In this document: positions 2,796-63,511 of the stretch, one piece after another
How positions within the stretch are numbered: position 1 is the stretch's first letter
Layout: every line of letters begins with the position of its first letter
Assembly (NCBI GenBank): GCA_029262415.1
Contig: JAJCZL010000068.1
Span: 2,372 to 66,371, forward strand
Length of the DNA: 64,000 nucleotides
Reading direction: 5' to 3'
From: Deltaproteobacteria bacterium
GTDB lineage: Bacteria; Desulfobacterota; Binatia; UBA1149; JAJCZL01
Program-made: the position numbers and the translations under genes
Notes under the pieces: model-generated
Seen by the model: only the letters and a program-made list of their open reading frames with translations
Told to the model about the DNA's origin: nothing
Databases searched by the model: none

Positions 2796-2816
2796 AGGTT
2801 GGAGCCGGCCGGCGGG

Positions 2817-8222: not shown

Positions 8223-8513
8223 CGCAGCCTCCCAGTATCCCCGGCGATAGGGCATCGGGGGAGGACTAGCTTAGAGGCGACGGTTTCCCGGGAAGGGCAT
8301 CGTTCCAAGCGCAACGCGATCATCGTGTGAGCAGCATGCACCGCACTGGATAGTGCCAAGTGCCCGAAGTTAGAACAATTCTGACAAGGTATGCTTGTAA
8401 TCTAAATCGCCGCCGATCCCCCATATGGGTACTTCTTCATCGATTGCGTGACTTCACTCGTGCAGTTGATGTACGGAGCCTTCTCTGAGCGAGCGATCTG
8501 TTGGGTGGGACGT

Positions 8514-10049: not shown

Positions 10050-10060
10050 GCGCGCCCGTG

Positions 10061-31037: not shown

Positions 31038-31089
31038 GGCAAGAGGTGGCAAGACGTGAGCAAGAGGTGAGCAAGAGGTGAGCAAGATG
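31038..31089. repeat. 5 x 10-11-bp tandem repeat (A/G)GCAAGA(G/C)GTG spanning the translation start of the 31078 gene
   Basis: ggcaagaggtg gcaagacgtg agcaagaggtg agcaagaggtg agcaagATG; each unit carries GAGGTG (SD-like + GTG). Confidence 0.65.
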
Positions 31090-47280: not shown

Positions 47281-48273
47281 CTACCCCAGGAAACAGTTCT
47301 CGTTGTGCCAGGTCAGCGTGGCAGCATCGGGTCGGTCTGATTCTGTGTGGGGAACGTTGATCTGTTTCCCGTGAAGCGGGTAGTACGTGCGCCCGTTCTC
47401 AAAGTCTGCTTTCAAGCGTGCGCTGACTTCGAAACGGTGCTCGGGCGTGACCGTGACGTAGCCTTTGTCGAAGAGGCGATGGAAGTCCGAACGAAGTAGC
47501 AAGCCGTTCGCCGTGGCGTGCTCGCCACCCTTGGCGTACGGGCGAATGTGTGCAGCCTCCAGAGCCGGCAGCGAGTGCTCGGATGAGACGGCGCAGGTGC
47601 GTCCATACGCGTCCGTCACCGCGATGCGGAATGTCCCTTGGCCGAGGCGCGGCCTCACCAGAGTCGGCTGGCCGAAGCGTTCGGCCGGCTCGGCGATCGA
47701 CGGTGAAGAGGCGCCGCCAGCTGCTCGGGCGTAGTCGGCCTGGACGCGGGCCTGGCACTCTTGGTAAATGCGGAGTCCTTCACCCTGGCTGAGATCCTCT
47801 TGTCGACCTTGAACGGTCGCTTTTCCCCAATCGGACGGTTCTCGTACCCATTCACCTGGTGCAAAGAAGACGGGTTGGGTAATCATTAGACAGCCGACAC
47901 TGTAAGACCCACTTGGATCTCGTTTCTCGGGCTTTCGGTATCGTTCGATCCGCGCGACCATTTCTTCGAATGTTGTCGCTCCGTTTGCTTCTTCGAAGCT
48001 TTCCCAGGCGAGCCACGCAGGCAAGACTGAGGCACGCGCGAGAAACCCGAATCCCCCTATCGCGTTGTGCGGTGCCTTTAGCTTGAAGAAGAACGGAGTG
48101 CCCGGGGGCTTGCTGTGGAATGTCTTTGCGCCTGACGGTTGCCAGAAGTTCACTTCGTCCAACGTCTCGCGGGCGCGCAAGAACTCGTACCAATCAAAGT
48201 CTGTGGGTGCGATGATCCCGTGCATCCGAGTTATCTCTTCTATATAACCGCACCGTTGCGCGTGGCCTAACAA
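47281..48273 (-). CDS. PUA-like (EVE/ASCH-type) domain fused to HNH_2 nuclease; candidate modification-dependent restriction endonuclease
   Basis: N-terminal EVNFWQPSGAKTF...PGTPFFFKLK..NAIGGFG (PUA-like fold pattern); C-terminal CAVSSEHSLPALEAAHIRPYAKGGEHATANGLLLRSDFHRLFDKGYVTV (HNH_2 pattern). Confidence 0.55.
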   Translation of the reverse strand: MLGHAQRCGYIEEITRMHGIIAPTDFDWYEFLRARETLDEVNFWQPSGAKTFHSKPPGTPFFFKLKAPHNAIGGFGFLARASVLPAWLAWESFEEANGATTFEEMVARIERYRKPEKRDPSGSYSVGCLMITQPVFFAPGEWVREPSDWGKATVQGRQEDLSQGEGLRIYQECQARVQADYARAAGGASSPSIAEPAERFGQPTLVRPRLGQGTFRIAVTDAYGRTCAVSSEHSLPALEAAHIRPYAKGGEHATANGLLLRSDFHRLFDKGYVTVTPEHRFEVSARLKADFENGRTYYPLHGKQINVPHTESDRPDAATLTWHNENCFLG

Positions 48274-48320
48274 CCCAGGTGTTTCGTCGGCAACGCGATG
48301 CGTCGCGTACTGGATCGGGG

Positions 48321-48692
48321 ATGGGTATGAGTGATCAGGAGCGATCAGTTGGAGAGCTAAAACATCGAGTGGCGGACTTCTGTTCCGCGCGCGACTGGGA
48401 CCAATTTCACGGTCCCAAGTCTGTCGCAGCCGGTCTGGTCACGGAGGCGGCTGAGTTGTTAGCCGAGCTACGCTTCGCGACCGATGAACAAGAGATAGCG
48501 GCCGTGCAGGATCCCGCTCGCCGCGAACGGCTGGCCGATGAGTTGGCTGACGTGTTTTTCTTCCTGCTCCGTTTTGCCCAACGATTCGATTTCGATCTGT
48601 CCGAATGCCTGGACGCCAAGCTTGCAAAGAATGCCGAGCGTTACTCCGTTGCGAAGTCGCGCGGACGCAACGCGAAGTACGATGAGCTTTAG
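48321..48692 (+). CDS. MazG-like nucleotide pyrophosphohydrolase domain protein
   Basis: EAAELLAE...ELADVFFFLLRFA helix pair typical of the all-alpha NTP-PPase (MazG) fold; start between 48279 and 48327. Confidence 0.6.
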   Translation: MGMSDQERSVGELKHRVADFCSARDWDQFHGPKSVAAGLVTEAAELLAELRFATDEQEIAAVQDPARRERLADELADVFFFLLRFAQRFDFDLSECLDAKLAKNAERYSVAKSRGRNAKYDEL

Positions 48693-48695
48693 TCG

Positions 48696-50639
48696 ATGAG
48701 ACTCTACTCGGGGCCGGTCGACCGCTTCATCAGCGACACGGTTCGCAACCGTGTCGCTGACAAGCTGAAGGACGCATTCTTCGCCTATCACCGCTTCCAG
48801 CCGGGGCCGAGTGAAGTCACATCTTGGCGCAACTCGCTGCGCGCAACGGCGCAGGTCTTTCAAGAGGCGGGGTTCGACGACCACGGCGTCATCCTTGAAT
48901 ACCAACTGCCAATGACGTCGAAACGGCTCGATTGCATGGTCTCGGGCCGCGATGCCGCGGGTGCTCCAAACGCTGTGATCATGGAGCTTAAGCAATGGGA
49001 CAAATGCGAGGAGGCCTACGGTGACGAAGTGGTCGCCACATTCGTCGGTGGGGCTGTTCGTGAGGTGTTGCATCCGTCGGCACAGGTCGGCCGCTACCAG
49101 CGCTATCTAGAAGACTCGCACACGGCTTTCTACGATGGGGAGAACCCGATCAAGCTGAGTTCATGTGCATACCTACACAACTACACGCCTGTAGAGAACG
49201 ACCTGCTCTTGGCGGAAAAGTACCGTCCGCTGCTTGATGAGTTTCCGACCTACACAGCTGACGATGTCGATGAGCTGCTAGGGCACCTTACCGACAAACT
49301 CGGCGCAGGTGGCGGGATGCCGCTTCTCGAGCAGATCGAGGAGAGCCGATACCGGCCGAGCAAGAAGCTGTTGGACCACGTCGCCGGCGTGATCAAGGGG
49401 AAACCTGAGTACGTACTGCTCGACGAACAAGAGATTGTTTATGAGCGGGTGCTCTCCGCTGCGCAGGATGGGTTCGCGGATCGCAAACACGCTGTAGTGA
49501 TCGTGAAGGGTGGACCCGGTACGGGCAAATCGGTCATCGCGATCAATCTGCTCGCCGATCTCTCGTTGAAGGGCTTCAATTCGCACTATGCGACCGGTTC
49601 GAAGGCGTTTACTGAAACTCTGAGGAAGGCGGTTGGGAAGCGAAGCGAAGTGCAGTTCAAGTACTTCAACCAGTATGGCCAGGCGCAACCTAACGATGTC
49701 GACGTGCTGATCTGCGATGAAGCGCACCGGATTCGTGTGACGAGCAACGACCGGTTCACGCCGAAAGCGAACAGGTCGGACAACCCACAAATCGATGAGC
49801 TATTTGATGCCGCGAAGGTCAACGTATTCTTCATCGACGACAAGCAAGGTGTGCGGCCGCTGGAGATCGGTTCGGCTGATTACATCCGAGACGCTGCCGC
49901 CCGCCGTGGCAGCCGAGTGTTTGACTATCAGCTGGAGGCGCAGTTTCGGTGCGCCGGCTCTGACGGGTTCGTTAACTGGGTGAGCAATACGCTTGAGATC
50001 GAGCGTACCGCCAATGTGCTCTGGGACGCAGGCGACGAACAATTCGACTTTCGCATCATGGATTCGCCGGCTGCGCTCGAGACCGCGATTCGACAACGGG
50101 TGTTTGACGGAAACACCGGCCGAATGGTCGCCGGGTTTTGCTGGCCCTGGTCTAAACCGAAAGCAGATCGGACCCTAGAGGATGACGTTGTTATCGGGGA
50201 TTTTGGCCGCCCCTGGAATGCGCGCTCCGACGCCGGTCGACTCGCCCAGGGCATACCGAAGGAGTCGTTCTGGGCGACGGATCCGAACGGTATCGAGCAG
50301 GTCGGATGTGTATACACCGCTCAAGGTTTCGAATTCGACTACGTCGGCGTGATCTGGGGGCCTGACCTTGTTTACGACTTTGATGCGAACGCCTGGCGTG
50401 GTGACAAGACCGCGTCGAAAGACTCAACGGTAAAGCGTGCGAAAGAAGGGTTTACCGAGTTCGTTAAAAATACGTACCGCGTGCTTTTATCACGTGGGAT
50501 GAAGGGGTGCTACGTGTACTTCATGGACAAGGATACGGAGAGGTATTTTAAAAGTCGGATGGAGGGGTTGGATAAGGCGGCTGATCGATGGGGAGATTTG
50601 GAGGCGGCGGAATCGAAGCCGAAATACGGGTCTGAGTAG
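48696..50639 (+). CDS. DUF2075-family protein: N-terminal PD-(D/E)xK-like nuclease motif + SF1 helicase/ATPase core
   Basis: RLDCMV...IMELKQW (D..ExK); Walker A VKGGPGTGKS; Walker B VLICDEAHR; UvrD-like motif VYTAQGFEFDYVGV; start 4 nt after the MazG-like gene stop. Confidence 0.65.
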   Translation: MRLYSGPVDRFISDTVRNRVADKLKDAFFAYHRFQPGPSEVTSWRNSLRATAQVFQEAGFDDHGVILEYQLPMTSKRLDCMVSGRDAAGAPNAVIMELKQWDKCEEAYGDEVVATFVGGAVREVLHPSAQVGRYQRYLEDSHTAFYDGENPIKLSSCAYLHNYTPVENDLLLAEKYRPLLDEFPTYTADDVDELLGHLTDKLGAGGGMPLLEQIEESRYRPSKKLLDHVAGVIKGKPEYVLLDEQEIVYERVLSAAQDGFADRKHAVVIVKGGPGTGKSVIAINLLADLSLKGFNSHYATGSKAFTETLRKAVGKRSEVQFKYFNQYGQAQPNDVDVLICDEAHRIRVTSNDRFTPKANRSDNPQIDELFDAAKVNVFFIDDKQGVRPLEIGSADYIRDAAARRGSRVFDYQLEAQFRCAGSDGFVNWVSNTLEIERTANVLWDAGDEQFDFRIMDSPAALETAIRQRVFDGNTGRMVAGFCWPWSKPKADRTLEDDVVIGDFGRPWNARSDAGRLAQGIPKESFWATDPNGIEQVGCVYTAQGFEFDYVGVIWGPDLVYDFDANAWRGDKTASKDSTVKRAKEGFTEFVKNTYRVLLSRGMKGCYVYFMDKDTERYFKSRMEGLDKAADRWGDLEAAESKPKYGSE

Positions 50640-50649
50640 CGCTTCCTCG

Positions 50650-53600
50650 ATGGCGTTGAATTGCCCTTTCTGTTCCCCCGCCTCCGAGTCCGTCTTCCAC
50701 GCGGGCTCAGCGATTCTCGCCCTCTGGGACGCCCACCCCGTCTCCCAGGGCCACGCCCTCCTAATCCCTAAACGCCACGTCGAAACCTGGTTCGACGCCA
50801 CGCCTGAGGAACAAGCCGAACTCACCGCCGCGATTGCAATAGCTAAGCAGGCGATTGAAGAACAGCACACGCCAGACGGCTACAACATCGGCATCAACGT
50901 CGGCCCCGAGGCAGGACAAACCGTCTTTCACCTGCACGTCCATGTGATCCCGCGCTACCGTGGTGACGTCGACGATCCGCGTGGCGGCGTGCGCTCGGTA
51001 ATTCCTGCCAAGAAAATCCCCGAGAGCGCCCTTACAACCGGCCCGGTCGACGGTGACGAGACGGTCAAGGACACCGAGAACGCTCGATACGCTCCGTCGG
51101 CACTCACGGGTCTGCCGCGCAATCGCGGGATCGTCACGGGTGGCCTGGACGATCCGCTCATCTATCACCTACGCGCACACCTTGACGACGCACGACGCGC
51201 CGATATCGCCGTTGCCTTTGTGCTCGAGACCGGTGTGATCGAAATCGAGGCGCACCTGGCCGAGATCGTCACCAAAGACGACGGCCGCCTGCGTTTGCTA
51301 ACCGGCGACTACCAAGGCGTGACCGAACCCGGCGCGCTGCGCCGCTTGCTCGATCTGACAGCACCTCATCCCGAGCGCGTCGAGCTGCGCGTGTACGAAA
51401 CCGGAGGCGGTAGTTTTCATCCAAAATCCTACATCGTTGAGAACCGCCGCGGCGAGGTTACGGCCTATGTAGGCAGCTCGAACCTGACGCGCACGGCACT
51501 GCGCACCGGCGTTGAATGGAACTACCGACCAGGGAGTGTCTCGCATCCCGAGGGCGTGACCGACGTGCAAGCTGCGTTCGAGCGACTTTTCAAGGACCCA
51601 AAGACCAAGCCGCTCGATGCCGTATGGATCGATAGCTATGAAGCCCGGCGCGCAACGGCGCAGACGCGCATGGACGCACCGGCCGGTATTCCCGATGAAC
51701 CCCCGCCGCCACCGCCCGATCCGCACGCTATCCAACAAGAAGCGCTCGCCGCACTAGGCGCCACGCGCGATGATGGCAACCGCGCAGGCCTTGTGGTGAT
51801 GGGCACGGGCCTTGGTAAGACCTGGCTTGCGGCCTTTGACAGCGCCGTGGCCGGTGCGCGACGCGTGTTGTTCGTCGCGCACCGCGAAGAGATTCTGGCA
51901 CAGGCGCTTTCAACATTTCGCCGCATCCGTCCTGAGGCCAAGCTCGGCTTCTTTAACGGGCTGGCGAAGATCGCCGATGCCGACGTGCTGTTTGCGTCTG
52001 TGCAGACACTCAGCCGCCGCAACCACCTGGACCGCTTCGACGCGCACGATTTCGACTACATTATTATCGATGAATTCCACCACGCCGCCGCGGCGACTTA
52101 CCGGCGTGTGATCGGTTACTTTGAACCGGAGTTCCTGCTGGGACTGACGGCAACGCCCGAGCGCACCGACGGCGGCGACTTGCTCGGCCTTTGCGGTGAA
52201 AACCTCGTTTACCGCTGCGACTTCCTGCGCGGGATCCGCCAAGGCCTGCTCTCACCGTTTCACTACTTCGGCGTGCCCGATGAGGTCGACTACGCGAACA
52301 TCCCGTGGCGAAGCTCGCGCTTTGACGAAGCAGAACTAACTCTCGCCTTGGCCACCGAGAAACGCGCGGCCAATGCGTTGGCGCAGCTTCGCGAGCGCGG
52401 CGGCACACGGACTTTGGCTTTTTGCTGCTCAAGGCGCCACGCCGATTTTATGTGCGAATACTTCAGGGGCGCGGGTATGCGCGCGGCGGCCGTCCACTCG
52501 GGCGAGACTTCCGACCCGCGCGCTACTTCCTTGGAACTGCTCGAAGAAGGCGAACTCGACGTCGTTTGCGCAGTAGACATGTTCAACGAGGGCGTCGACA
52601 TCCCCGAGGTCGACACCGTCTTGATGCTGCGCCCAACCGAGTCGCGCATCCTTTGGCTGCAGCAGCTCGGGCGCGGCTTGCGGCAGTGCGAGGGCAAGAC
52701 GCTTAAGATCATCGACTACATCGGCAACCACCGCAGCTTCTTGCTAAAACCGCAGGCGCTGTTCGGGTTGGAGCAGGGCGATCGCCACGTCCGTGATGTG
52801 CTGGTGGCCGTCGCCGCTGGCTCGTACGACCTACCGCCCGGATGTGAGGTGACCTACGACCTTGAGGCTGTGCGCATCTTCGAGGCGATGCTTCATTCAG
52901 AGAGCGCGGGCGACCTGATGCGCACGTTCTACGAGGATTTTCTTGCCGAACATGGCGAACGTCCGACCGCCCCGGAAGCGTTTTATGCGGGCCTTTCGCC
53001 GCGCTCGGTTCGCAAGAGCTACGGGTCGTGGCTTGGGTTCATAGAGCAGATGGGTGGGCTCACCGAGCCCGAGCAGGCCGTGCGCGCGGGTAGCACCGGC
53101 ACGCTACTTGAGCACCTCGAGACCACGCCGATGTCGCGGAGCTTTAAGATGCTCGTGCTGCTCGCGATGATCGAAGCGGAGGCCTTTCCGGGGCGGATCT
53201 CGATTGAGGATCTTGTCGAGAGAGTGCGAAAGATGGCGCGCCGGTCGGTTCGCGTGCGTACCGATCTTGGCGTCGATATCGAAGACGCCGAAGTAGTGCG
53301 TCGGCATCTCGAACAGAATCCAATTGCAGCCTGGGTCGGAGGGCAGGGGACCGGCGGTGATGCCCACTTTGCTTACGAAGACGGCGAGTTCCGTACGGTG
53401 TTCGGCGCCGGCGACGTTAGTGATGCGCATGCGTATTTGGATCTTGCGCGCGAGTTGGCCGAGTGGCGTTTGGTGCAGTACTTGGATCGGCCGGGGCAAT
53501 CTGACGGCGATCGGATTGTTTGTAGCGTCACGCACAACGCGTCGGGCACGCCCATCTTGATGCTGCCCGATCGCGAGAGGGTGGCTCAGATTCCGAAGGG

Positions 53601-54282
53601 CTGGGTTCGGGTACGAATCGGCGAGGAAAACTTGGAGGCGAACTTCGTAAAGATCGCAGTCAACGTCATGCGGCGTGAAGATACCGAGGAGAACGTACTT
53701 GGGGAAGTATTACGGGGATGGTTCGGTGAGAAGGCCGGCGCATCGGGGACTGCGCAGCGGGTGGTGTTTGAGAGAGGCGAGGATGCGTATGAGTTGGTGC
53801 CGGTCGGGGTTGATGTCCCAGGCAAACCGTCTGGTGCGATCGTGGGCAAGGCCTACAAGCGTGCCGATATTCCCGGGTTGTTTGACCAGGAGCTGACGGT
53901 CGATTTCCAACGCTCGGGTTTCATCGTGAGAGACGGGCACATGTACTTGCTCGTCACGCTTGATAAGTCCGGCTTCGCCGAAGAACACAAATACGGCGAC
54001 CGGTTTCTCTCAGGAGAACTATTCGAGTGGCAGAGTCAGAACCGAACGACGCAGAGTGGTAAGCACGGGCAGCTGATCAAGGGGCACCGAGAGTCTGGCG
54101 TAACGGTGCATCTGTTTGTGCGCGAGCGTAAGGACGTCAGAGGCACGGCATTGCCGTATGTGTATTGCGGCGACCTCGACTTCGTGGATTGGGAAAGAGA
54201 GAAACCGATTACCGTGCGCTGGCGGTTGCAGGTACCGCTTTCAGCCGATCTTCAACGAAGGTTCGCGGTTGGTAGGTCGTAG
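50650..54282 (+). CDS. 1210-aa multidomain protein: HIT (histidine triad) - PLD/HKD nuclease - SF2 helicase (ResIII + HelicC) - DUF3427
   Basis: HIT HLHVHVIP (aa 94-100); HKD FHPKSY...GSSNLT (aa about 256-280); Walker A GTGLGKT and DEFH; helicase-C QQLGRGLR; C-terminal DUF3427-like region; start 10 nt after the DUF2075 gene stop. Confidence 0.7.
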   Translation: MALNCPFCSPASESVFHAGSAILALWDAHPVSQGHALLIPKRHVETWFDATPEEQAELTAAIAIAKQAIEEQHTPDGYNIGINVGPEAGQTVFHLHVHVIPRYRGDVDDPRGGVRSVIPAKKIPESALTTGPVDGDETVKDTENARYAPSALTGLPRNRGIVTGGLDDPLIYHLRAHLDDARRADIAVAFVLETGVIEIEAHLAEIVTKDDGRLRLLTGDYQGVTEPGALRRLLDLTAPHPERVELRVYETGGGSFHPKSYIVENRRGEVTAYVGSSNLTRTALRTGVEWNYRPGSVSHPEGVTDVQAAFERLFKDPKTKPLDAVWIDSYEARRATAQTRMDAPAGIPDEPPPPPPDPHAIQQEALAALGATRDDGNRAGLVVMGTGLGKTWLAAFDSAVAGARRVLFVAHREEILAQALSTFRRIRPEAKLGFFNGLAKIADADVLFASVQTLSRRNHLDRFDAHDFDYIIIDEFHHAAAATYRRVIGYFEPEFLLGLTATPERTDGGDLLGLCGENLVYRCDFLRGIRQGLLSPFHYFGVPDEVDYANIPWRSSRFDEAELTLALATEKRAANALAQLRERGGTRTLAFCCSRRHADFMCEYFRGAGMRAAAVHSGETSDPRATSLELLEEGELDVVCAVDMFNEGVDIPEVDTVLMLRPTESRILWLQQLGRGLRQCEGKTLKIIDYIGNHRSFLLKPQALFGLEQGDRHVRDVLVAVAAGSYDLPPGCEVTYDLEAVRIFEAMLHSESAGDLMRTFYEDFLAEHGERPTAPEAFYAGLSPRSVRKSYGSWLGFIEQMGGLTEPEQAVRAGSTGTLLEHLETTPMSRSFKMLVLLAMIEAEAFPGRISIEDLVERVRKMARRSVRVRTDLGVDIEDAEVVRRHLEQNPIAAWVGGQGTGGDAHFAYEDGEFRTVFGAGDVSDAHAYLDLARELAEWRLVQYLDRPGQSDGDRIVCSVTHNASGTPILMLPDRERVAQIPKGWVRVRIGEENLEANFVKIAVNVMRREDTEENVLGEVLRGWFGEKAGASGTAQRVVFERGEDAYELVPVGVDVPGKPSGAIVGKAYKRADIPGLFDQELTVDFQRSGFIVRDGHMYLLVTLDKSGFAEEHKYGDRFLSGELFEWQSQNRTTQSGKHGQLIKGHRESGVTVHLFVRERKDVRGTALPYVYCGDLDFVDWEREKPITVRWRLQVPLSADLQRRFAVGRS

Positions 54283-54347: not shown

Positions 54348-54941
54348 TCACCTCAACTTCCCCTCCGTCCGCAGCACCGCCTTTGTCAGCAACCGGATAA
54401 TCTCGACCTCGGTCACCCCGAATCGTGCAAGCAATTCGTAGACCCGGCCGACAGTTGTTTGGACCTCCTTTCTCGCCCGTCGCGTCTTCTCGGTTTGGCC
54501 GGCTGCTTCGATTTCGGCCGGGGTGGCTTTGAGCAAGGCGGCTACGCGTAGAACCAGAGTTGCATCGATCGGACTGTCTGGCACCGGCACGTCTTTTCGT
54601 GTCGACCCAGCGGTTCGCGCGCCCGCCGGTTCCTTGGGCTCAAAGCCGCGAACGGAGAACTTGCCGATTTTCAGTTGGCCGCCCTCAATCCCGATCTCGA
54701 TATCCTTGCTTCGCGGCAGCATCGTTCGCAGCTTTACGAGCGGAGTAACGCTGATCGAGATTCGCCCAAGTGACGCCCCACGCGCAGGGATCGTGTGTTT
54801 TACGCGCGGCATCTCGAATCGAACTGCATCGCCGGTAACGGTCACGACAACTCGGCACGCGCCGAACTGCTTCTCGGCGGTCGCCAACTGTTTGAGTGCG
54901 TCGCGCAGTTCTCTGCGGTCTACCTTTGTACGGCTGGCCAT
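54348..54941 (-). CDS. hypothetical protein (no recognizable domain)
   Basis: 197-aa ORF with M start, convergent with the giant helicase gene; no motif recognized. Confidence 0.35.
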   Translation of the reverse strand: MASRTKVDRRELRDALKQLATAEKQFGACRVVVTVTGDAVRFEMPRVKHTIPARGASLGRISISVTPLVKLRTMLPRSKDIEIGIEGGQLKIGKFSVRGFEPKEPAGARTAGSTRKDVPVPDSPIDATLVLRVAALLKATPAEIEAAGQTEKTRRARKEVQTTVGRVYELLARFGVTEVEIIRLLTKAVLRTEGKLR

Positions 54942-55082
54942 CGGGCAGGCAGCGTAGCGGGAAGTTGGGTGCGATGAAACATGAGATGAAACACGAGCGG
55001 TGGCGACCCAGTCTTCGCCGCGAATCTTGAGGGTAGAGACGGTGCGAGTTTAGCGCGAAGGCAAGGCTACGGAACCAAACGA

Positions 55083-55283
55083 CTACTTGCCCTTAGCGTC
55101 CTGTGTTTGACGGGGTTTGTCGTTCGCTTCTTCACGTGACCGCCTCGTCTCGTCGTTTCGCAAGATACTGTCTACACTCGGCGTTCGCATCCATTCAGGC
55201 CAGGCCTCGACCTCCTTGGCCGTACGGTGCACATCCTTCCAGAAATCTTCGCTGCTAGCTTTCTTGTTCTTTTTCATGAGCAC
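55083..55283 (-). CDS. small Lys/Glu-rich hypothetical protein
   Basis: 66-aa ORF upstream of 54348..54941 on the same strand; local GC lower than surroundings. Confidence 0.2.
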   Translation of the reverse strand: MLMKKNKKASSEDFWKDVHRTAKEVEAWPEWMRTPSVDSILRNDETRRSREEANDKPRQTQDAKGK

Positions 55284-55489
55284 TCACCTTCAAGGATTCT
55301 CCGATTCCGTCAAGAAGAGCAACTGCCTTCTTTTCGCGTTCTGGGTATGCGATTGAAACCATTGGCGTACGAGGGTGCGAGTCCACCGCACGCTCTGTTT
55401 ATTACTGATGGGATTGCAACTCCCCCCGGCCCCGCCTCGCCCCGCCCCGGCTTGTCACCACGACTTCCACAGCTTAGTTTCGACACCCA

Positions 55490-57182
55490 CATGGCTGGTC
55501 GCAAAAAGCCGCGCCGCCGTCGCGCTCGGACATCCGCGCGCGCGGAGGGCTGCGGGCAGTGGGTTCTTGCGGTGCGGAGGTTTCCCGGCGTGGTTGCCGA
55601 GCCCGGCCGCGACGAAGTCCGTCCGCTGATTGTCATCTGCTACGAGACCGAATCCGACCTTGTCGTGGGACAGACGCTGGTGATGCCCGATGAGCTGACC
55701 GGCGCGTGCGCACGTGTGCTGAGCAGCGCGTGCGCGGCACCGTCGGCGGGCGCCCCGAGGACCCCGGCCCGTGTGTGGGTGGAGAGCGTGGAGATCGCAG
55801 AAGAACTCTCCTCCATCAAAGGTCTTCGCGCCGAGGTTGTCGTCGGCGAGGTGCCGGAGATCGATGGGGTGATGGATTCGTTGCGGGCCTCGTTGGCCGG
55901 CAGCGGCCGGGCTTCCGACGAAGGGCCGGGCTACCTGCAAGACGGCGGTTTATCGCGCGAGACGGTTGGCGCGTTGTTCGAGGCGGCGCGCGCACTGTAC
56001 GCCGTCGCACCGTGGAAGGATTGCAACGAGTGTCTTGCTCGCATCGATATTCCCGAGCTCGACGTGGCGGGGGCGTGTCTCGTGGTCATCGGCGCGCTCG
56101 GCGATGTTTTCGGGTTTTTGCTGTTCCCCTCGGCCGATGCCCATGAGCAGTTCATCGAAGCCACCGCGCGTACGCGACGCGGCGGGCCCGACCGTTTCGG
56201 CACACCGTTTACGTCGTTGACGTTTGTGTGCGCAGCCGATCTGCCCTCGCGGCACCGCCGCGAGGCCATGCGCGAGCGTTGGCCGGTAGCCTCCAGCGAA
56301 GCCTACCCGTTGCCCGAACGTCTGGACTCAGACGGACTCCGACGCTCCCTCACCGAACGCGACATGAAGGTGCTCGGCGCAGTCACCTCGGCTCTGTGCG
56401 CTTTCGCCGTTCGCCACCCACGATCGCTTACCGATCCCGACAGCGCTCCGGTGCGTGAAACCAGTTCGGGCCGCGACAACATCGCGGTTCGAATCACCGT
56501 GCCCTATGAGGCCTACGAGTTATTTGAAGCCAAACCAACGGGTGCGGCGGGCAAACGCGAGTCGAAGCTTAAGGTCGAAGACCGCTTACTCGGCAGAATG
56601 CTCGGGTTCGCATGCGAGACGCTGGGGCGCAGCTTCGTTGCGGAGATGGAAAGCGACTTCGACGACATCGAGTCTGCCGTTCAACTCGTGCTGCCCTTCG
56701 GCTTGTTTCATCGCCTCTACGGCGGGCGCACGGTTGCCGCGCGCTTCTTTGATGCCCACGGCTCAGAGCTTGCGGGCGAGGAGGCAAAGCTGTTTGCGGC
56801 GCACCGAGAGGGTTGGTTGAGCATTTGGGAGGTCGAGCAGGTGCAGCGCGGGCGCGGCCTGGAGTTGCTTGACGTCTTATCGGGCCAACGGTGCACGGTT
56901 GTCGAGAAAACGCTTTCTCGCAGTGTCGCCGAAGGGCATTGCCTGCTTGCGTGTGTGCTGCGCATGGATGGCCGGTTCGTCATCAACGGCATGCACGGGC
57001 GTCCGCTGGCGGCGCCTGTTGCCGCGCTAGTCGCCGAACGTGGGCGCAGGCGACTGCGCCGCAAGCGCGAGGTTCCGGTGGAGCGCTTGCGCGACGGCCG
57101 CTTCGCGCGCGCACTGCTCGGATACTGGGAAGACGCGGTTGCGACGCTCGATGCGGCTTTGCGGCCTAGCGGCCGCGGATAG
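55490..57182 (+). CDS. hypothetical protein (about 564 aa from MAGRKKPRRRR)
   Basis: Long ORF 55227..57182; Arg-rich N-terminus then acidic/Leu-rich body; no motif recognized. Confidence 0.35.
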
Positions 57183-57570
57183 AGAGAGCCGCGCGCCGCA
57201 AACCGCCGTGCCGCGCGAGCACCTCGAAATCGCTGTCGCAGTGTAGCACCGCGACGTCCTCGCGGATTGCCACCGCGGCGATCAGGCAGTCAATGAGTTT
57301 ACGAACGGTCTCGCCTTGCGCCCGGCATCGGCGGTGCAGTGCAGCGGCTTGGTCGTAGTCGCCTGGGCCGGTTGCAAGCACTGTTGCGCGGGCGAGCAAA
57401 CGCCTAAGGCTCATCAGGTGGCGGTCGTCGCGCGCCCCGGCCATGACCTCCATGCGGATCGGGTCGCAGACGGCGATTTCATCATCGAGCAGACGGTCGA
57501 CGCTGATGCATGCCGGTGAGCCGGTATCGCGCAGAAACTCGACCCATGCAGAGGTGTCAACGAGGGTCAC
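57166..57570 (-). CDS. vapC: PIN-domain toxin VapC
   Basis: MTLVDTSAWVEFLRD N-terminus; paralog of 36140..36541. Confidence 0.7.
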   Translation of the reverse strand: MTLVDTSAWVEFLRDTGSPACISVDRLLDDEIAVCDPIRMEVMAGARDDRHLMSLRRLLARATVLATGPGDYDQAAALHRRCRAQGETVRKLIDCLIAAVAIREDVAVLHCDSDFEVLARHGGLRRAALSIRGR

Positions 57571-57769
57571 TCGCCCGCCCGCTGCGCATTTGTTCCAGAT
57601 CTCCCTCCCAACCAGAGCCGCGCAGGCGCCTGGCCTCGTCGAGGTCCAGCGGTTCTGCGGCGAGCAGTTGTAGCGCGAGGTTCACGGCGTCGCGTTTGGT
57701 CGAAAGGCGGTAGCGACGCATAACCTCGGCGCAAGCCCGCTCGTCTATATCAATGTTCGTGCGCGCCAT
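57557..57769 (-). CDS. vapB: VapB-family antitoxin
   Basis: MARTNIDIDERACAEVMRRYRL N-terminus typical of VapB; overlaps vapC start by 14 nt. Confidence 0.6.
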   Translation of the reverse strand: MARTNIDIDERACAEVMRRYRLSTKRDAVNLALQLLAAEPLDLDEARRLRGSGWEGDLEQMRSGRASDPR

Positions 57770-58043
57770 ACACCACCTATACACCAATACGTGGCCAGCC
57801 TACAACCCGTCAAATCAGGCGCTATTGGGCACTTTTGCTCGACGACAATTACTTTTGCCGGTTGGGGTGGGGAGGTATATTGCGGGTCGGCGCTGCGTGG
57901 GCGCGCATGGGTAGACGACGCGCAGGGATTTGAGTCGGTTATTTGTTGATGGTAATAACTGGCATAAATTTGGTATTTAGATAGATTATTACCACTATTC
58001 GCGCAAGCCCTGCGCCCCGGTACTAGAGGGAAAGTCCTAATAA

Positions 58044-59099
58044 GTGAGATCTCTCGCCCCAGATTTCCTTGAGAAGCTTAGATTCTCGGTGGAGCAAACA
58101 TCGTCGCTGACCGCGCTCGGGCAGGCCTTCGCTCAGCAGCAGCTCTTCGAGAAACAGAGCCCCGAGGCACTTAAGACGCTTCGCACCTCGGCGATCGTCG
58201 AATCGACTGAATCCTCAAACCGTATCGAAGGTGTGGTTGCACCCAAGCAACGATTCGCGGCGATCGTTGCCGGTAAGTCGGAGCCCCGCAACCGCTCCGA
58301 GCAAGAGATCCTTGGTTACCGTGGGGTTCTTGAAATGGTGCATTCGAACGCATCGGAAATCCCGATCACGGCGAACTCGATCCGGCAGCTACACAAAGAG
58401 GTTTACAGGTATCACCCGAATGACGGCGGGAACTGGAAACCAGTAGACAATGAAATCGTCGAAAAGAATACGGCCGGTGAGATCGTGCGCGTTCGCTTCA
58501 AACCGGTCGCAGCTGTGGCGACGCCGCAGGCGATGGCCGACATCGAGCGACTGTACCGCCAGGCCACGACCGACGGTTGCGAGCCGCTCGTGGTGGCACC
58601 GCTTCTGATTCTGGACTTCTTGTGCGTCCATCCTTTTGCTGACGGAAACGGCCGAGTCAGCCGCCTATTGACGCTGCTGGCTCTGTACCACGCCGGCTTC
58701 AGTGTTGGTCGCTACATAAGTCTGGAACGTCTGATTGAAAACACGCAGTCGGACTATTACCGCGTGCTCGAAGCGAGTTCTCAGCGGTGGCACGACGGCA
58801 AGCACGACCCCCACCCTTGGCTCGAGTATTTCTGGGCGATTCTCCTAGCTGCCTACCAGGAGTTCGCCGAGCGCGTCGGCAAAGAATCGAGCGGTCGTGG
58901 TAACAAGACGATGCGTATCCGGGCGGCGATTGAACGCCGAGTCGGCGCGTTCCGCATGAGCGATCTCGAGCGTGACTGTCCCGGGGTGAGCCGAGAGATG
59001 ATCCGGGTTGTTCTGAACGAACTGCGTGACCACGGGCGCGCGGAAGTCACAGGCCGTGGTCGCGGCGCCGAGTGGCACAAGCTGGAGCCGAAGGATTGA
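58044..59099 (+). CDS. Fic-family protein (AMPylase-type)
   Basis: Canonical Fic motif HPFADGNGRVSR; AT-rich promoter region with 8-bp IR upstream. Confidence 0.8.
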   Translation: MRSLAPDFLEKLRFSVEQTSSLTALGQAFAQQQLFEKQSPEALKTLRTSAIVESTESSNRIEGVVAPKQRFAAIVAGKSEPRNRSEQEILGYRGVLEMVHSNASEIPITANSIRQLHKEVYRYHPNDGGNWKPVDNEIVEKNTAGEIVRVRFKPVAAVATPQAMADIERLYRQATTDGCEPLVVAPLLILDFLCVHPFADGNGRVSRLLTLLALYHAGFSVGRYISLERLIENTQSDYYRVLEASSQRWHDGKHDPHPWLEYFWAILLAAYQEFAERVGKESSGRGNKTMRIRAAIERRVGAFRMSDLERDCPGVSREMIRVVLNELRDHGRAEVTGRGRGAEWHKLEPKD

Positions 59100-59437
59100 T
59101 CGCTGCCGAGATCACTCGTACCTGAGAAACGCCTCGTACCTCTCCTCAAGAAACTCAGCCTTGGGCCGCAACTCCGCACTCCGCGGCACGTGGATCGGCT
59201 GATCATGCACTCCCCTTGTCCCTTCTCTGGCGGCGCGGTAGTGCGGATCGACAACGGAATCTCTGCGAGCACCGCCGGTTTGAAGATGCCTTGTTGCGAG
59301 ACTAGCGGCACCCGCCGGCCTTCGAGTTGGAAGCCCTCGCTTAGAACCTTCCAAGGAAGTACGTCTCGGCGTAGGCCTATCCACTCCGTGTAATATTCTG
59401 CTTGCATTTGATTGCACTGCTTCGTACTCTCTTCATC

Positions 59438-59638
59438 ATGGCGTCGGTGACCTATCGAATTGACGACGATCTGAAGGCGGCACTGGAAGAGTTCTGCGAC
59501 AAGCACGGCCTTAAGCACCAGGCTGTGGTCGCCGAGGCACTGGCCTCATGGCTTGAGGACGCCGAAGAGATTGCCGCGATCGAGGATCGTCGCGAGGGCC
59601 CGTGGGTCGAGTGGTCCGATGTCCGCACCAAAGTATAG
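59438..59638 (+). CDS. RHH antitoxin (RelB/DinJ/ParD-like)
   Basis: MASVTYRIDDDLKAALEEFCDKHGLKHQAVVAEAL is typical of an RHH antitoxin; overlaps downstream toxin. Confidence 0.55.
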   Translation: MASVTYRIDDDLKAALEEFCDKHGLKHQAVVAEALASWLEDAEEIAAIEDRREGPWVEWSDVRTKV

Positions 59639-59903
59639 GCTCGTCGTTCATCGTGCGGCGGTCGGCGAAATCGAGTCGCTGTCGAAGAAGATCAAACCAA
59701 AGGTCATTGCAGCGATCGACGCGCTTGCCGAAGACCCGCGTCCGCCCGGCGCCGCCGCGTTGCGCGGACGCAAAAGCGCGTTTCGGCTTCGCGTAGGTGA
59801 ATACCGCGTTCTCTACGAGATACACGCCACCGAGATCGTGGTTTACGTTGTCGCCGTAGGACACAGACGCGATGTGTATGTGCGCACGGTGCGGCGGCGG
59901 TGA
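59619..59903 (+). CDS. RelE/ParE-family toxin
   Basis: RLRVGEYRVLYEIHATEIVVYVVAVGHRRDVY C-terminal signature. Confidence 0.65.
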   Translation: MSAPKYRLVVHRAAVGEIESLSKKIKPKVIAAIDALAEDPRPPGAAALRGRKSAFRLRVGEYRVLYEIHATEIVVYVVAVGHRRDVYVRTVRRR

Positions 59904-60019
59904 CATGACCGCACCCGGGTCGATGCTGCTTCGGCCCCCCAAAAAAAGACCGCTCGAATGCCCTGGTCAGGAAATAGAGATTGAGAGGCGATAGTAATAG
60001 CTAGATTCTAGCCAGAAAT

Positions 60020-60292
60020 ATGATGACCGCAGCGATTACCGACCTGAAGAACCGTTTGAGCTACTATCTGCGCCGCGTTGCACGCGGGGAGAGCATCACC
60101 GTGCGTGGCAACCCCGTCGCTCGGATCACGCCGGTCGGTTCGCACGGCGCGGAACTGGAAGGGCTGGCGGCAGCGGGGCTGGCGAGGCTTCCGGTCGAGC
60201 CCCTTCCCAAGGGTTTCTGGACTCGCTCGCTTCCAAAGCTAAACAAATCGCTGCGCGCATACCTTGCTGAGGACCGCGAGGATCGGTTCTGA
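60020..60292 (+). CDS. Phd/YefM-family antitoxin (no cognate toxin adjacent)
   Basis: ITDLKNRLSYYLRRVARGESITVRGNPVARI is typical of Phd/YefM. Confidence 0.6.
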   Translation: MMTAAITDLKNRLSYYLRRVARGESITVRGNPVARITPVGSHGAELEGLAAAGLARLPVEPLPKGFWTRSLPKLNKSLRAYLAEDREDRF

Positions 60293-60398
60293 TCCGATTT
60301 TCTGCCCCGCGTAGGAGTCACGCCAACAGGTTCCCGTAGCGTACTGTTCCCGTATCGTGCGTTGATCTACACGCGTCCGGTTGCTAGGTTTTGCCGCC

Positions 60399-61064
60399 AT
60401 GGCTGCGTCCAAACGCAAGACTCAGCGCCCGTCGCGCGCATTGAAGTCGGTAGCCAAGAAAGACCCCGAACCGTTGTTGCAACTCCTCATTGTGTTGACC
60501 GGCTGCGACGCGCCGGTGTGGCGGCGCATTCTCGTTCCTGCGCGCTATAACTTCTGGGAACTCCACGTCGCGATCCAAGACGTTATGGGCTGGCTTGACT
60601 ATCATCTACACGAGTTCGTCGTGACTGACCCCGAGACGATGGGTGCCCTACGAATTGGGCTTCCCGACGATGAATTCTTAGATGCACCTCTTACCTTGCC
60701 GGGTTGGAAGATACCGATCGAAGGCTACTTTGGTACAGGGCAGAGCCTACCGTCACGATACACCTATGACTTCGGTGACAATTGGGAACACGTTGTGCAC
60801 CACGAGGATTTCCAAGTGGCCGAACCGGGCATCACCTACCCGGTGTGTTTGGCCGGCGAGAACGCGTGTCCGCCCGAAGACGTTGGGGGCACACACGGGT
60901 ATCGCGAGTTCCTAAAAGTGATCGCCGACCCGAGAGACCCCGAACACGAGCACTTTCGGCGATGGGCCGGTGGAGACTTTGATCCGCGCAGGTTTGACCC
61001 TGCGGCGGTGCGTTTTGACGACCCGGCCAAGCGCTTTAGGCTGGCGTTCGGCCGCGCGGGGTGA
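60399..61064 (+). CDS. plasmid pRiA4b ORF-3-like family protein
   Basis: VWRRILVP...LHVAIQDVMGWLDYHLHEF...DFGDNWEH signature of the PRiA4_ORF3 family. Confidence 0.55.
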   Translation: MAASKRKTQRPSRALKSVAKKDPEPLLQLLIVLTGCDAPVWRRILVPARYNFWELHVAIQDVMGWLDYHLHEFVVTDPETMGALRIGLPDDEFLDAPLTLPGWKIPIEGYFGTGQSLPSRYTYDFGDNWEHVVHHEDFQVAEPGITYPVCLAGENACPPEDVGGTHGYREFLKVIADPRDPEHEHFRRWAGGDFDPRRFDPAAVRFDDPAKRFRLAFGRAG

Positions 61065-61818
61065 TCGGCCGCGCCGCGCGTCTTCTGCTTCCACGCAGCG
61101 CACGCACGAGCGCACCGAGTCGCGGTGTCGGCTGTTGACGGGCCGCCTTGTCGAGCGCGGTGATCAGATTGCGTCTGAGTTCTTCGACTACGCCGAGAAC
61201 TTGTTCGGCCGTTTGCGCGGGTGAAAACCCGCACGCAGACACCTTCAACTCAGTGCTGATGACCGACACGAGAGTTGCCTCGGCGTTCATGCCCGCATCG
61301 ATCTCGTAACCGAGCGCGATGAGGTCGCCGAGGCCGAGTTCGGGGAAGCGTGAAAACAGCCAGTCGAGGTCATAGAGGTCTTTTTCCGAGCATTGGCTGA
61401 CCAACGTTGCCGCTTTCATCTTCAGCAATGTCTCGAGATCGGCAACGCTGACGCGATCGTTCGCCTCGATCGCGGTGCCGACGACGAACACTTGCGGGTC
61501 CAAGACGACTTGAGTTGCGAAAGAGTGACCGTCCAATCGAAAGTCGCCCGCATAGAGTTGCCGACTGCTCTGCGGTTCGGAGGCTTGCGCGCCGATCCGG
61601 GCGAGCGAGCGAACCGCCAGCACGGTTGCTCGAAACGCAGTGTCGTCACGGGCGAATAGGTCAAGGTCGTCCGACCTGCGGTGACCTGCGTAGTATCCGG
61701 CCAACGCGGTTCCCCCCACGAGCATGCAGCCGGACACGTCTTGGGCGAATACGTGCGTCAAGGCACGGTACAGAGGTGCGGGAAGGACCTTTTGCGCTAG
61801 TTCGCTACTTGGTTGCAT
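61036..61818 (-). CDS. AbiEii/AbiGii-like nucleotidyltransferase toxin family protein
   Basis: GGTALAGYYAGHRRSDDLDLF NTase motif; start refined to MQPSSE at 61818, overlapping the upstream XRE gene by 22 nt. Confidence 0.6.
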   Translation of the reverse strand: MQPSSELAQKVLPAPLYRALTHVFAQDVSGCMLVGGTALAGYYAGHRRSDDLDLFARDDTAFRATVLAVRSLARIGAQASEPQSSRQLYAGDFRLDGHSFATQVVLDPQVFVVGTAIEANDRVSVADLETLLKMKAATLVSQCSEKDLYDLDWLFSRFPELGLGDLIALGYEIDAGMNAEATLVSVISTELKVSACGFSPAQTAEQVLGVVEELRRNLITALDKAARQQPTPRLGALVRALRGSRRRAARPITPRGRTPA

Positions 61819-62267
61819 TTCCACTGGACCAACGTCTGCAAATCTCCACGCCGCTTTGGAGCAGTGAAGCGGGAGTACTCGCCGAAGCGTTTCCACACCG
61901 AGGGCCCGAGTATTTTTGCGGCGGCGTACACCCCGTAAACCTCGACGAGTCGCCCAACCGCGCGCGGCTCCCAGCCGATCAGCGCGACCGCGAACTCGGT
62001 CAGGCCTTCGTAGAGGCGATCCCAGAGCAGGTGGGCCCTCAGCGCATCTTCGTTCTCGCCGAGGCACGGCAGCGGTTGCATCAGAGAGTCGAGCGAGACG
62101 TCGAGCGCGCGCCCGATCCCGGCCAGGTGAGAGCCGCGCACGCCGGCGGCTCCTTCGTGTCGAAACCATTTTGAGACCGCCTGGCGACTTAGACCGACGG
62201 CTCTGGCAAGGTCGCTCTGAGACCAACCCCGGGCTAGGAGATAGGCCTTAAGTGTCTGAAGTTCCAC
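61797..62267 (-). CDS. XRE-family HTH regulator with C-terminal extension
   Basis: LLARGWSQSDLARAVGLSRQAVSKW helix-turn-helix. Confidence 0.55.
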   Translation of the reverse strand: MELQTLKAYLLARGWSQSDLARAVGLSRQAVSKWFRHEGAAGVRGSHLAGIGRALDVSLDSLMQPLPCLGENEDALRAHLLWDRLYEGLTEFAVALIGWEPRAVGRLVEVYGVYAAAKILGPSVWKRFGEYSRFTAPKRRGDLQTLVQWKCNQVAN

Positions 62268-62295
62268 GCTAATAGGATAGGCGTGTGCCCGGCTG

Positions 62296-62315
62296 TTGTC
62301 AATCTAAGTTGACAA
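62296..62315. promoter_or_regulatory. inverted repeat TTGTCAA-N6-TTGACAA in a divergent AT-rich promoter region
   Basis: Perfect 7-bp arms; between the XRE gene (minus) and mobile mystery protein A gene (plus). Confidence 0.35.
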
Positions 62316-62465
62316 TTACGTCAGTATTTGTACGCTGCTGTAACAACCCTAGTAACAGAATTCACTCACCTGCTCGATCTTGTAGCAGCCTACCGCCTGC
62401 CATAGAATGACAAAATATTAGGTTATAGCCTGGTATTATATAATGCTTTATCAGGGTATGGCCTT

Positions 62466-62927
62466 ATGACTAATCAGAAGAAAACCGTGGCACGAAAGCG
62501 TTTGGACGAACGGTTAGCTCCACTCAAGCCCGCTTCGCGCTTCCTGGCGCCGCCTAAGGGCTGGGTGCGGGCGATCCGCGACGCGCTTGGGATGTCGGCT
62601 GCGCAACTCGCCAAGCGCGTGGGCGTCCGGCCGCAAAGCGTGTCCGATATCGAGAGGTCCGAAGCCAACGGCACCGTTCAGCTAAACACCCTGCGCAGGT
62701 TTGCCGAAGCGCTCGACTGCACGGTGGTCTACGCGCTGGTGCCCAACTCATCGCTCGAGGGTTTGGTGCAAGACCGCGCACGCGAGATTGCCCGCAAGCT
62801 CCTCGCGCGCAGCGATCACAGCATGGATCTGGAAGCGCAGGGATTGTCACCGCAAGAGCGTGAAGCGCAGATCGACGCCTACGTGCGCGAGCATCTCAGG
62901 GTGCGCGATCTCTGGGAGAACTCGTGA
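62466..62927 (+). CDS. mobile mystery protein A (XRE-type HTH)
   Basis: HTH SAAQLAKRVGVRPQSVSDIE; gene pair with the downstream Fic-like gene, overlap ATGA-style. Confidence 0.6.
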   Translation: MTNQKKTVARKRLDERLAPLKPASRFLAPPKGWVRAIRDALGMSAAQLAKRVGVRPQSVSDIERSEANGTVQLNTLRRFAEALDCTVVYALVPNSSLEGLVQDRAREIARKLLARSDHSMDLEAQGLSPQEREAQIDAYVREHLRVRDLWENS

Positions 62928-63511
62928 GCGATCCACTCGACGGGCTTGCAGGCGGCACGCCGCTGGAGCCCGCGGAACGCGAGGGTCTGTTGCAGACGTG
63001 GATTACCTTTCGCGGCGAACTGAACGAGGCTGAGCAAACCAACATATCTGCCGGCCTCGCCTGGGTTCATCGCCAAGCGCGCAAAGACATCCTTAATGAA
63101 GGATTCATGAGAAACCTTCACAGGCGCCTCTTTGGCGATGTTTGGGCGTGGGCCGGCGAGTTTCGCAGCACGCCGCGCGATCTCGGCGTCGAACCCGCGC
63201 TGATTCGCTCAGAGATAAGGCTGACTTTCGACGATACGCGCTACTGGATCGAGAAGCAGACTTATCAACCCGACGAGATCGCCGTGCGCTTGCACCACCG
63301 CCTGGTGTTGATCCATCCGTTTGCGAACGGCAACGGTCGCACGACCCGACTTATTGCCGACCTGCTCGCAGAACGCCTGGGGCGTGAGCCTTTCACCTGG
63401 GGGCCACAGGGTCTCGACGATATCGGCGAGACCCGTGCGCGATATATCGCCGCGCTCAAAGCGGCCGACGATCATGATATCGAGCCGCTGCTCGAGTTCG
63501 CGCGGTCTTAG
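62924..63511 (+). CDS. mobile mystery protein B (Fic-domain)
   Basis: Fic motif HPFANGNGRTTR; 195 aa. Confidence 0.65.
   Translation: MSDPLDGLAGGTPLEPAEREGLLQTWITFRGELNEAEQTNISAGLAWVHRQARKDILNEGFMRNLHRRLFGDVWAWAGEFRSTPRDLGVEPALIRSEIRLTFDDTRYWIEKQTYQPDEIAVRLHHRLVLIHPFANGNGRTTRLIADLLAERLGREPFTWGPQGLDDIGETRARYIAALKAADDHDIEPLLEFARS

Follow-up and report, generated by a model that had tools for sequence, protein, structure and literature searches.

The window analysed here is a stretch of 64,000 nucleotides from a Deltaproteobacteria bacterium (GTDB lineage Desulfobacterota, Binatia; GenBank assembly GCA_029262415.1, contig JAJCZL010000068.1, positions 2,372 to 66,371). Its minus strand carries a gene whose product combines an N-terminal domain, predicted to adopt the fold of the PUA superfamily, with a C-terminal HNH_2 nuclease domain; both domains are conserved in a large family of proteins. 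This product is probably a stand-alone, nucleoside triphosphate (NTP)-independent, modification-dependent (Type IV) restriction endonuclease, composed of a PUA-superfamily reader and an HNH nuclease. We favour an enzyme of the VcaM4I/TagI type, which agrees with the domain organization, the catalytic residues and the linker helix, and also with the absence of a partner methyltransferase, the patchy distribution linked to defence islands and the presence of Type IV-type neighbours. The sequence-only reading had called the gene a candidate modification-dependent restriction endonuclease, a status that is justified since both halves of the architecture hold.

The gene had been placed by that reading on a complete open reading frame (ORF) of 330 codons, at 47281..48273 of the minus strand. 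The frame and all the quoted motifs stand, the translation containing FWQPSG, FFFKLK, NAIGGFG, AHIRPYAKGG and NGLLLRSDFHRLFD, and only the start has to be moved. An internal ATG at 48225 (MHGIIAPTDFDWY...) is the start position in the 34 full-length homologues that were aligned (34/34). Since all of them begin there and the 5' extension is not conserved, the gene most likely covers positions 47281-48225 (minus strand) and encodes 314 amino acids, the 16 codons between the TTG at 48273 and the ATG at 48225 being probably untranslated. A word-indexed search recovered more than 7,661 homologues (clusters at 90% identity) that cover the whole length of the protein, and the best 120 of them display 56-66% identity over their full length of about 305-320 amino acids. 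The exact look-up of the window protein returned no record, and its cluster carries no name. The third-position GC of the gene is 0.67.

The only Pfam match of the protein is PF13391 (HNH_2), with an E-value of 4.4e-11 and 42.9 bits for a gathering cut-off of 21, between residues 211 and 259. On the strength of this match and of the full-length homologues, the ORF is considered as a real gene and not as a chance ORF of high-GC DNA. VcaM4I (6YEX) is the sole sequence match in the PDB (E = 1.6e-5 for the single sequence, improving to 1.2e-10 for the family profile), and the matched region includes the beta-beta-alpha-Me core together with the RxGQGxFR motif. The residues H224, N241, D250 and D254 of VcaM4I are aligned with H226, N240, H249 and D253 of the window protein; these catalytic positions of VcaM4I are needed according to the mutagenesis reported in PMC7897488. 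In the 35 close homologues H226, N240 and H249 are invariant and D253 is conserved in at least 90% of sequences. Because these four residues match the catalytic set of VcaM4I and are conserved in close homologues, the window protein looks catalytically competent. By this alignment, H226 would be the general base, N240 would have a structural role, and H249 and D253 would be the metal ligands. The claim of a C-terminal HNH_2 domain is thus borne out by a Pfam score above the cut-off and by residues matching those mutated in VcaM4I.

Two other kinds of HNH protein were considered and rejected. The NCBIfam model NF045808, which represents the phosphorothioate-dependent enzymes with a sulfur-binding domain (SBD-HNH), gives 65 bits for a cut-off of 180, and the match involves only the model positions 163-283, corresponding to the nuclease half. 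The sulfur-binding half of this model finds no counterpart in the protein, and a phosphorothioate-dependent SBD-HNH enzyme was rejected on that ground; the matches with the HNH models of PADLOC are likewise confined to the C-terminal half. A phage homing HNH endonuclease was rejected on the basis of 50,697 phage records, among which no full-length copy was detected.

The N-terminal half is invisible to sequence profiles and was assigned from its predicted structure. No meaningful Pfam match was obtained for residues 1-168 at E<=10 in any of 33 family members, the profiles EVE (PF01878), ASCH (PF04266) and SAD_SRA included, and the PDB profile search with this domain gave one chance match only (E = 0.99). 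AlphaFold2 models were built on the family alignment for the full-length protein (predicted local distance difference test, pLDDT, of 81, with about 90 in the N-domain part) and for the domain only (pLDDT 90.9, predicted template modelling score 0.87). The order of the secondary structure elements is beta1, alpha1, beta2, beta3, a long beta4, two helices, beta5, a short beta6 and a long helix, the latter located by DSSP at residues 148-169 or 148-167 depending on the model. With the full-length model, Foldseek ranks VcaM4I as the first PDB match (6.6e-7) and TagI as the third (1.1e-3), followed by ASCH, EVE and YTH proteins. The domain-only model gives a top 50 composed almost entirely of PUA-superfamily proteins: the top matches are AF2351 (5e-5), ZmASCH from Zymomonas (about 2e-4, with a target-normalised template modelling (TM) score of 0.63-0.67) and PH0355, whereas 2EVE (3e-3), THYN1, YTH domains, YqfB (9kyh) and the N-domain of the McrB from T. 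gammatolerans are found lower. The EVE structures rank below ASCH for this model (TM 0.33-0.39), and no SRA chain is present among its top 50 matches. In BFVD, the library of viral structures, the best-scoring named matches are also ASCH domain proteins. The models thus predict a PUA-superfamily beta-barrel that is closest to ASCH, then to EVE, then to YTH. The N-domain had been described as PUA-like and of EVE/ASCH type: structural comparison supports the PUA-like fold in both the PDB and the viral library, Pfam and PDB profiles do not, and within the proposed type ASCH is retained as the closest subfamily while EVE is relegated to lower-ranked structures.

The profile of the N-domain, compared with 1.84 billion representative proteins, recovered 3,113 clusters (50% identity) at E<=1e-3. 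In the 150 best matches the domain is found at or near the N-terminus of proteins of at most 436 amino acids, many of them being metagenomic fragments. Four of the five longer matches that were checked contain HNH_2 (P0244, P0188, P0149 and P0261), and a Pfam match is absent in P0229 and in five shorter matches; no effector domain other than HNH_2 was detected in these ten proteins. From the alignment of 42 divergent members (down to 34% identity), we observe that T8, D9, W12, E24, N26, W28, F47, W74, N81 and G82 are conserved in 41-42 sequences, whereas the catalytic residues H226 and H249 are conserved in 37 and 36 sequences, respectively, so that the residues of the reader domain are more strictly conserved than the catalytic histidines. 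In five representatives, about 12% (P0152, P0191, P0193, P0231 and P0254), both histidines are replaced together, H226 by R or P and H249 by R or A, with retention of the reader-domain residues. Judging from these substitutions, the five proteins may form a nuclease-dead 'reader only' subclade.

The family displays a patchy distribution in more than 15 phyla. It is present in Nitrospirota, Elusimicrobiota, Acidobacteriota, Myxococcota, Planctomycetota, Chloroflexota, Actinomycetota, Verrucomicrobiota, Gemmatimonadota, Betaproteobacteria and others, and it has been found on four plasmids, where it is annotated only as "HNH endonuclease". This patchy spread and the plasmid copies are as expected for a mobile defence gene.

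Among the characterized enzymes, the EVE-HNH Type IV enzyme VcaM4I is the best match both in sequence and in structure. It resembles the window protein by the order of its parts, by its size (309 versus 314 amino acids), by its linker helix and by the RxGQGxFR motif; this helix is auto-inhibitory in VcaM4I, and the helix of the window protein is analogous to it (PMC7897488). However, the sequence similarity is limited to the nuclease half and none is detectable between the reader domains, that of the window protein being nearer to ASCH than to EVE in structure (2EVE with a TM score of only 0.35-0.38). Moreover, one metal ligand is the canonical His in the window protein and Asp in VcaM4I. The specificity of VcaM4I for 5-methylcytosine (5mC) and 5-hydroxymethylcytosine (5hmC) is not transferable to the window protein. 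TagI and ScoA3IV (SRA-HNH Type IV; 6GHS, PMC6765204) share with it the two-domain organization of a PUA-superfamily reader and an HNH nuclease with no partner methyltransferase, and TagI is among the full-length structural matches, but the N-domain of the window protein matches neither the SRA profile nor any SRA chain among its top 50 structures. The third comparison, made by description, concerns ScoA3V (Sco5330), an HNH enzyme with a PUA-like N-domain outside the EVE and SRA clusters, as in the window protein. The relatives of ScoA3V are reported only in Actinomycetales (PMC6765204), whereas the window family is distributed in many phyla.

The ASCH proteins AF2351 (2KKU), ZmASCH (5GUS), PH0355 and YqfB have the nearest fold (E = 5e-5 to 1e-3, target-normalised TM 0.6-0.67). 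They differ from the window domain by an identity of only 6-15%, by the lack of a profile match and by their nature of single-domain RNA or nucleoside enzymes that are not fused to a nuclease; the window domain is also larger (about 146 amino acids plus the helix) and is distinguished by a separate set of conserved residues. The ASCH family is reportedly characterized by a motif of the GxKxxExR type, attributed to Iyer et al. 2006, and this motif is absent from the sequence of the window protein. The nearest folds have RNA-related functions, ZmASCH being a single-strand RNase and YqfB having N4-acetylcytidine as its substrate. On this basis, the ASCH-like domain could recognize a modified base in RNA, which the HNH domain would cut, or the protein could serve in nucleic-acid repair. 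Such an RNA-directed or housekeeping role is highly improbable: HNH_2 domains of this type (VcaM4I, TagI, ScoMcrA-like) are DNA nucleases, the distribution is patchy and linked to defence islands instead of universal, and the lack of the ASCH motif also argues against it.

In the Type IV reading that we prefer, dependence on a modified base, and on a modified cytosine in particular, is suggested by analogy with known enzymes and by the genomic context. If the protein works as VcaM4I and TagI do, the reader would bind DNA and flip the chemically modified base into a putative pocket that would be lined by the near-invariant residues W12, E24, N26, F27, W28, F47, W74, F77 and N81. The nuclease would be held inactive by the linker helix as long as the reader is not engaged; upon engagement, an HNH-mediated dimer would cut close by. 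Host DNA would escape for want of the mark, which is why no partner methyltransferase would be needed.

Several points weigh against this reading. The PUA assignment comes from a predicted structure with TM scores of just 0.55-0.67 and identities of 6-15%, and the fold is detected by neither the Pfam nor the PDB profile searches with the N-domain. The ASCH proteins characterized so far act on RNA or nucleosides and are not DNA readers: YqfB is an N4-acylcytidine amidohydrolase (PMC12707154), and ZmASCH is a single-strand RNase according to the title cited in PMC7641849. ScoA3V, the sole 'PUA-HNH' enzyme tested so far, showed only a nicking activity stimulated by N6-methyladenine (6mA) (PMC6765204). 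Nuclease activity is not family-wide, because about 12% of the divergent members have lost both histidines, although the window protein keeps both. Finally, no experimentally tested member of the family was found in the literature.

Nucleases specific for modified DNA serve bacteria as a defence against phages with modified genomes and serve the laboratory as tools for mapping epigenetic marks. The readers characterized to date in such enzymes are SRA, EVE, YTH, winged-helix, DUF3427 and sulfur-binding domains; a review of 2025 (PMC12707154) gives SRA, EVE and YTH and mentions ASCH only through YqfB. Enzymes joining a PUA-superfamily reader to HNH are already established (PMC6765204, PMC7897488), so the new part is the ASCH-like reader and its recurrent cassettes. 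No paper on an ASCH-HNH enzyme was found, the literature search on ASCH-HNH and PUA-HNH giving only Lutz et al. The family is very large and widespread (thousands of clusters, many phyla) and its reader has neither a Pfam model nor a solved structure. The known members of the ASCH branch handle N4-modified cytosine or RNA. If the specificity of the window protein differs from 5mC/5hmC, the enzyme would represent a new reagent and would point to a new class of phage DNA mark policed by bacteria.

The neighbourhoods were compared in 83 loci carrying the HNH family (L001-L083) and in 80 metagenomic loci of close homologues of DUF2075 (L084-L163). A DUF2075 homologue is located within 3 kb in 8 of the 83 family loci, usually preceded by a MazG-like gene, and a PLD-helicase-DUF3427 gene (SauUSI-like) is located within 3 kb in six of them (L010, L026, L077, L038, L039 and L070), on the same strand and directly adjoining. 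The HNH gene repeatedly shares its strand with such neighbours, often at a distance of a few bases. In L009, the HNH gene (601-1533), the MazG-like gene (1540-1890) and the DUF2075 gene (1891-4275) follow one another on one strand. In L010, the HNH gene (9986-10927) begins just before the end of the helicase ORF (9989); this stop/start overlap of 4 nucleotides suggests a co-translation of two Type IV-type enzymes. Seen from the DUF2075 loci, a full-length gene of the HNH family adjoins on the same strand in 11 of the 80, and in 7 of the 34 that have enough flank on both sides. The MazG-like gene is found immediately upstream of DUF2075 (0-64 nucleotides, same strand) in 50 of the 69 loci with enough flank. 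MazG-like and DUF2075 genes are a conserved two-gene unit, for which no description as a defence unit was found in the searchable literature. Since no SauUSI-like gene was found in the 80 DUF2075 loci, the HNH gene is shared by two modules that otherwise occur apart; all three partner genes are present in the window. A neighbour-joining tree built with 95 members of the family shows those with each type of neighbour scattered and not confined to one clade.

The Pfam annotation of 115 flanking ORFs from 66 loci gave as commonest families DUF2075 (7), other HNH_2 proteins (6), Mrr_cat (3) and HNH_4 (3), in addition to six SauUSI-like genes. The HNH_2 and Mrr_cat neighbours would represent several adjacent nucleases of methylation-dependent type; a number of the HNH_2 neighbours may, however, be fragments of frameshifted copies. 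Three neighbourhoods annotated with Pfam contain Ssp/Dnd-like genes, Wadjet, and an McrB-like AAA_5 protein accompanied by an SNF2 helicase. HIT domains, either fused or stand-alone, are observed near the HNH family in L018, L019, L032 and L051. No DNA methyltransferase family occurs twice among these 115 ORFs. A Type II restriction-modification system was rejected, because no methyltransferase is found nearby in the window or is recurrent in the relatives.

The translational coupling of the HNH gene to an ATPase or helicase gene, seen in several loci such as L009 and L010, recalls the pairs of an ATPase and an HNH protein represented by ScoA3II/III (Septu-like), in which the ScoA3III-type HNH cuts regardless of modification (PMC6765204). 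On this precedent, the N-domain could be a general DNA-binding or auto-inhibitory module of a nuclease that nicks or cuts with a sequence preference and is restrained by an unlinked methyltransferase or by the DUF2075 or SauUSI-like partner. This alternative appears unlikely: ScoA3III has no PUA-like domain, the strongest conservation in the window family concerns polar and aromatic positions within the reader domain, both partners are absent from most loci, no methyltransferase is recurrent nearby, and an unregulated HNH nuclease would poison its own host.

The recurrent MazG-like gene bears on another alternative, in which the PUA-like domain binds a free (modified) nucleotide that arises or is set free in the course of infection, instead of a base in DNA, and thereby unlocks a non-specific HNH nuclease for abortive infection, the DCTPP1-like enzyme making or removing the ligand. 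The relevant system, likened to the window domain by description, is PUA-Cal-HAD (PMC12871103), with an N-terminal sensor of about 185 amino acids belonging to the PUA/ASCH clan and possessing an aromatic pocket; fusions with alternative effectors, HNH among them, and an association with MazG-like enzymes are reported for this sensor family. Its sensor binds free m6-dAMP, which switches the system on and drives the depletion of deoxynucleoside triphosphates and not the cutting of DNA. In addition, VcaM4I deprived of its reader and linker helix is a toxic, non-specific nuclease (PMC7897488), and the HNH gene is repeatedly found in an operon with the homologue of DCTPP1 (dCTP pyrophosphatase 1). 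We nevertheless judge this ligand-gated mechanism quite unlikely, given that some 80-90% of the family loci have no MazG-like neighbour, that the nearest full-length structures are restriction enzymes reading DNA and that no PUA-Cal structure is present among the Foldseek matches of the N-domain model. A related and more speculative arrangement, of still smaller probability, would make the PUA-like/HNH protein the DNA-cutting component of a modular cassette that also contains the DCTPP1-like MazG enzyme and the DUF2075 ATPase (elsewhere the SauUSI-like helicase). The ASCH-like domain would then sense a free modified deoxynucleotide, for instance the monophosphate released by MazG-like hydrolysis of a phage-specific modified dCTP, and would license the cutting of DNA; such a cassette would link the surveillance of nucleotide pools to nuclease immunity.

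Under the Type IV reading, the cassette formed with MazG/DUF2075 or with SauUSI-like genes, present in the window and in roughly 10-20% of the relatives, suggests a joint action against phages with modified DNA. The recurrent operon-like pairing with the DCTPP1 homologue and DUF2075, and with SauUSI-like enzymes, points to multi-gene units directed against modified DNA, none of which is described in the searchable literature. DCTPP1 prefers 5-modified dCTP. A modified cytosine is weakly favoured as the target because of the recurrent DCTPP1 homologue and of the SauUSI-like DUF3427 neighbours, DUF3427 being tied in SauUSI to the recognition of 5mC/5hmC (PMC6765204). The ASCH-like fold gives a further weak hint in the same direction, as it recalls the N4-acylcytosine substrates of YqfB (PMC12707154).

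In the window, the HNH gene is preceded on its left by rsmB, fmt, def and a transporter of the major facilitator superfamily, and followed on its right by the divergent MazG-like, DUF2075 and HIT-PLD-helicase-DUF3427 genes (Table 1). Both the divergent orientation and the position at an island boundary had been proposed beforehand and agree with the present analysis, with core genes on the left and, on the right, defence and toxin-antitoxin genes of lower third-position GC (0.62-0.72 in the island versus 0.74-0.81 in the core genes). The region 54348-63511 is rich in toxin-antitoxin and defence genes, and no methyltransferase was found among the genes of the island. The MazG-like gene probably starts at the ATG 48321 or 48327, as judged from the length of the homologue in L009 (116 amino acids). 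No sigma-70 consensus site was detected by promoter scan in the divergent intergenic region, a weak test for an uncultured lineage.

Table 1. Position of the PUA-like/HNH_2 gene, of its domains and of the neighbouring features in the window
Feature	Position	Strand	Basis or location
PUA-like/HNH_2 fusion gene (most likely extent)	47281..48225	-	Stop codon 47281-47283; start by alignment of 35 full-length sequences
Predicted PUA-like beta-barrel, residues 1-146, closest to ASCH, presumed modified-base reader	47788..48225	-	AlphaFold model and Foldseek
Inter-domain linker helix, residues 148-169, followed by low-confidence linker, residues 170-189	47719..47784 (helix)	-	DSSP on models
HNH_2 (beta-beta-alpha-Me) domain, residues 190-314, with RLGQGTFR, H226, N240, H249 and D253	47284..47658	-	PF13391
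Divergent intergenic region between HNH and MazG-like genes, including the unconserved ORF extension 48226-48273	48226..48320	.	Sequence
MazG-like all-alpha NTP pyrophosphatase, homologue of dCTP pyrophosphatase 1	48279..48692	+	Pfam MazG-like, E = 7.6e-11; 6SQW (DCTPP1), E = 6.4e-17
DUF2075/Schlafen-group-3-type helicase-ATPase	48696..50639	+	PF09848, E = 4.5e-93
HIT + PLD nuclease + superfamily 2 helicase + DUF3427, 1210 amino acids, SauUSI-like	50650..54282	+	Pfam HIT, PLDc_2, ResIII, Helicase_C, DUF3427
ORF without match	54348-54941		Island
ORF with DUF6930 only	55227-57182		Island
PIN	57166-57570		Island
Fic	58044-59099		Island
ParE	59553-59903		Island
PRiA4_ORF3	60381-61064		Island
AbiEii	61036-62226		Island
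HTH protein and second Fic/Doc	62466-63511		Island

In PADLOC, the DUF2075 protein matches the candidate system PDC-S41 over the whole protein (E = 1e-19), and AbiO and Nhi in part. Its residues 1-240 (48696-49415, plus strand) have no Pfam match; on inspection of the sequence, the segment RLDCMVSG...VIMELKQW found there resembles a PD-(D/E)xK nuclease motif, which would make the protein Nhi-like, that is, a nuclease joined to DUF2075. An identical DUF2075 protein is present in the Logan assembly of the run SRR15505517.

The SauUSI-like protein has an additional N-terminal HIT domain. Its single PLD motif is FHPKSYIVE...GSSN, in which Glu replaces the usual Asp of HxK(x)4D; this Asp is also altered in the inactive ScoA3I, as reported by Lutz et al. 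The comparison by hhalign of the N-domain profile with the DUF3427 region of this protein gave no similarity (probability 0.2%), so the two putative readers of the island are not detectably related.

Elsewhere in the window, three large ORFs without Pfam match (E<=1e-4) display a coding-like third-position GC: 2817-8255 (minus strand, 1812 amino acids), 31078-32868 (plus strand, 596 amino acids) and 23296-24474 (minus strand, 392 amino acids). The source seems to belong to a deep-branching lineage of uncultured bacteria. The best match of Fmt outside the window is at 61%, and the next ones are at about 50%, the few named examples among the latter being metagenome-assembled genomes of Binatia and Limnocylindrales.

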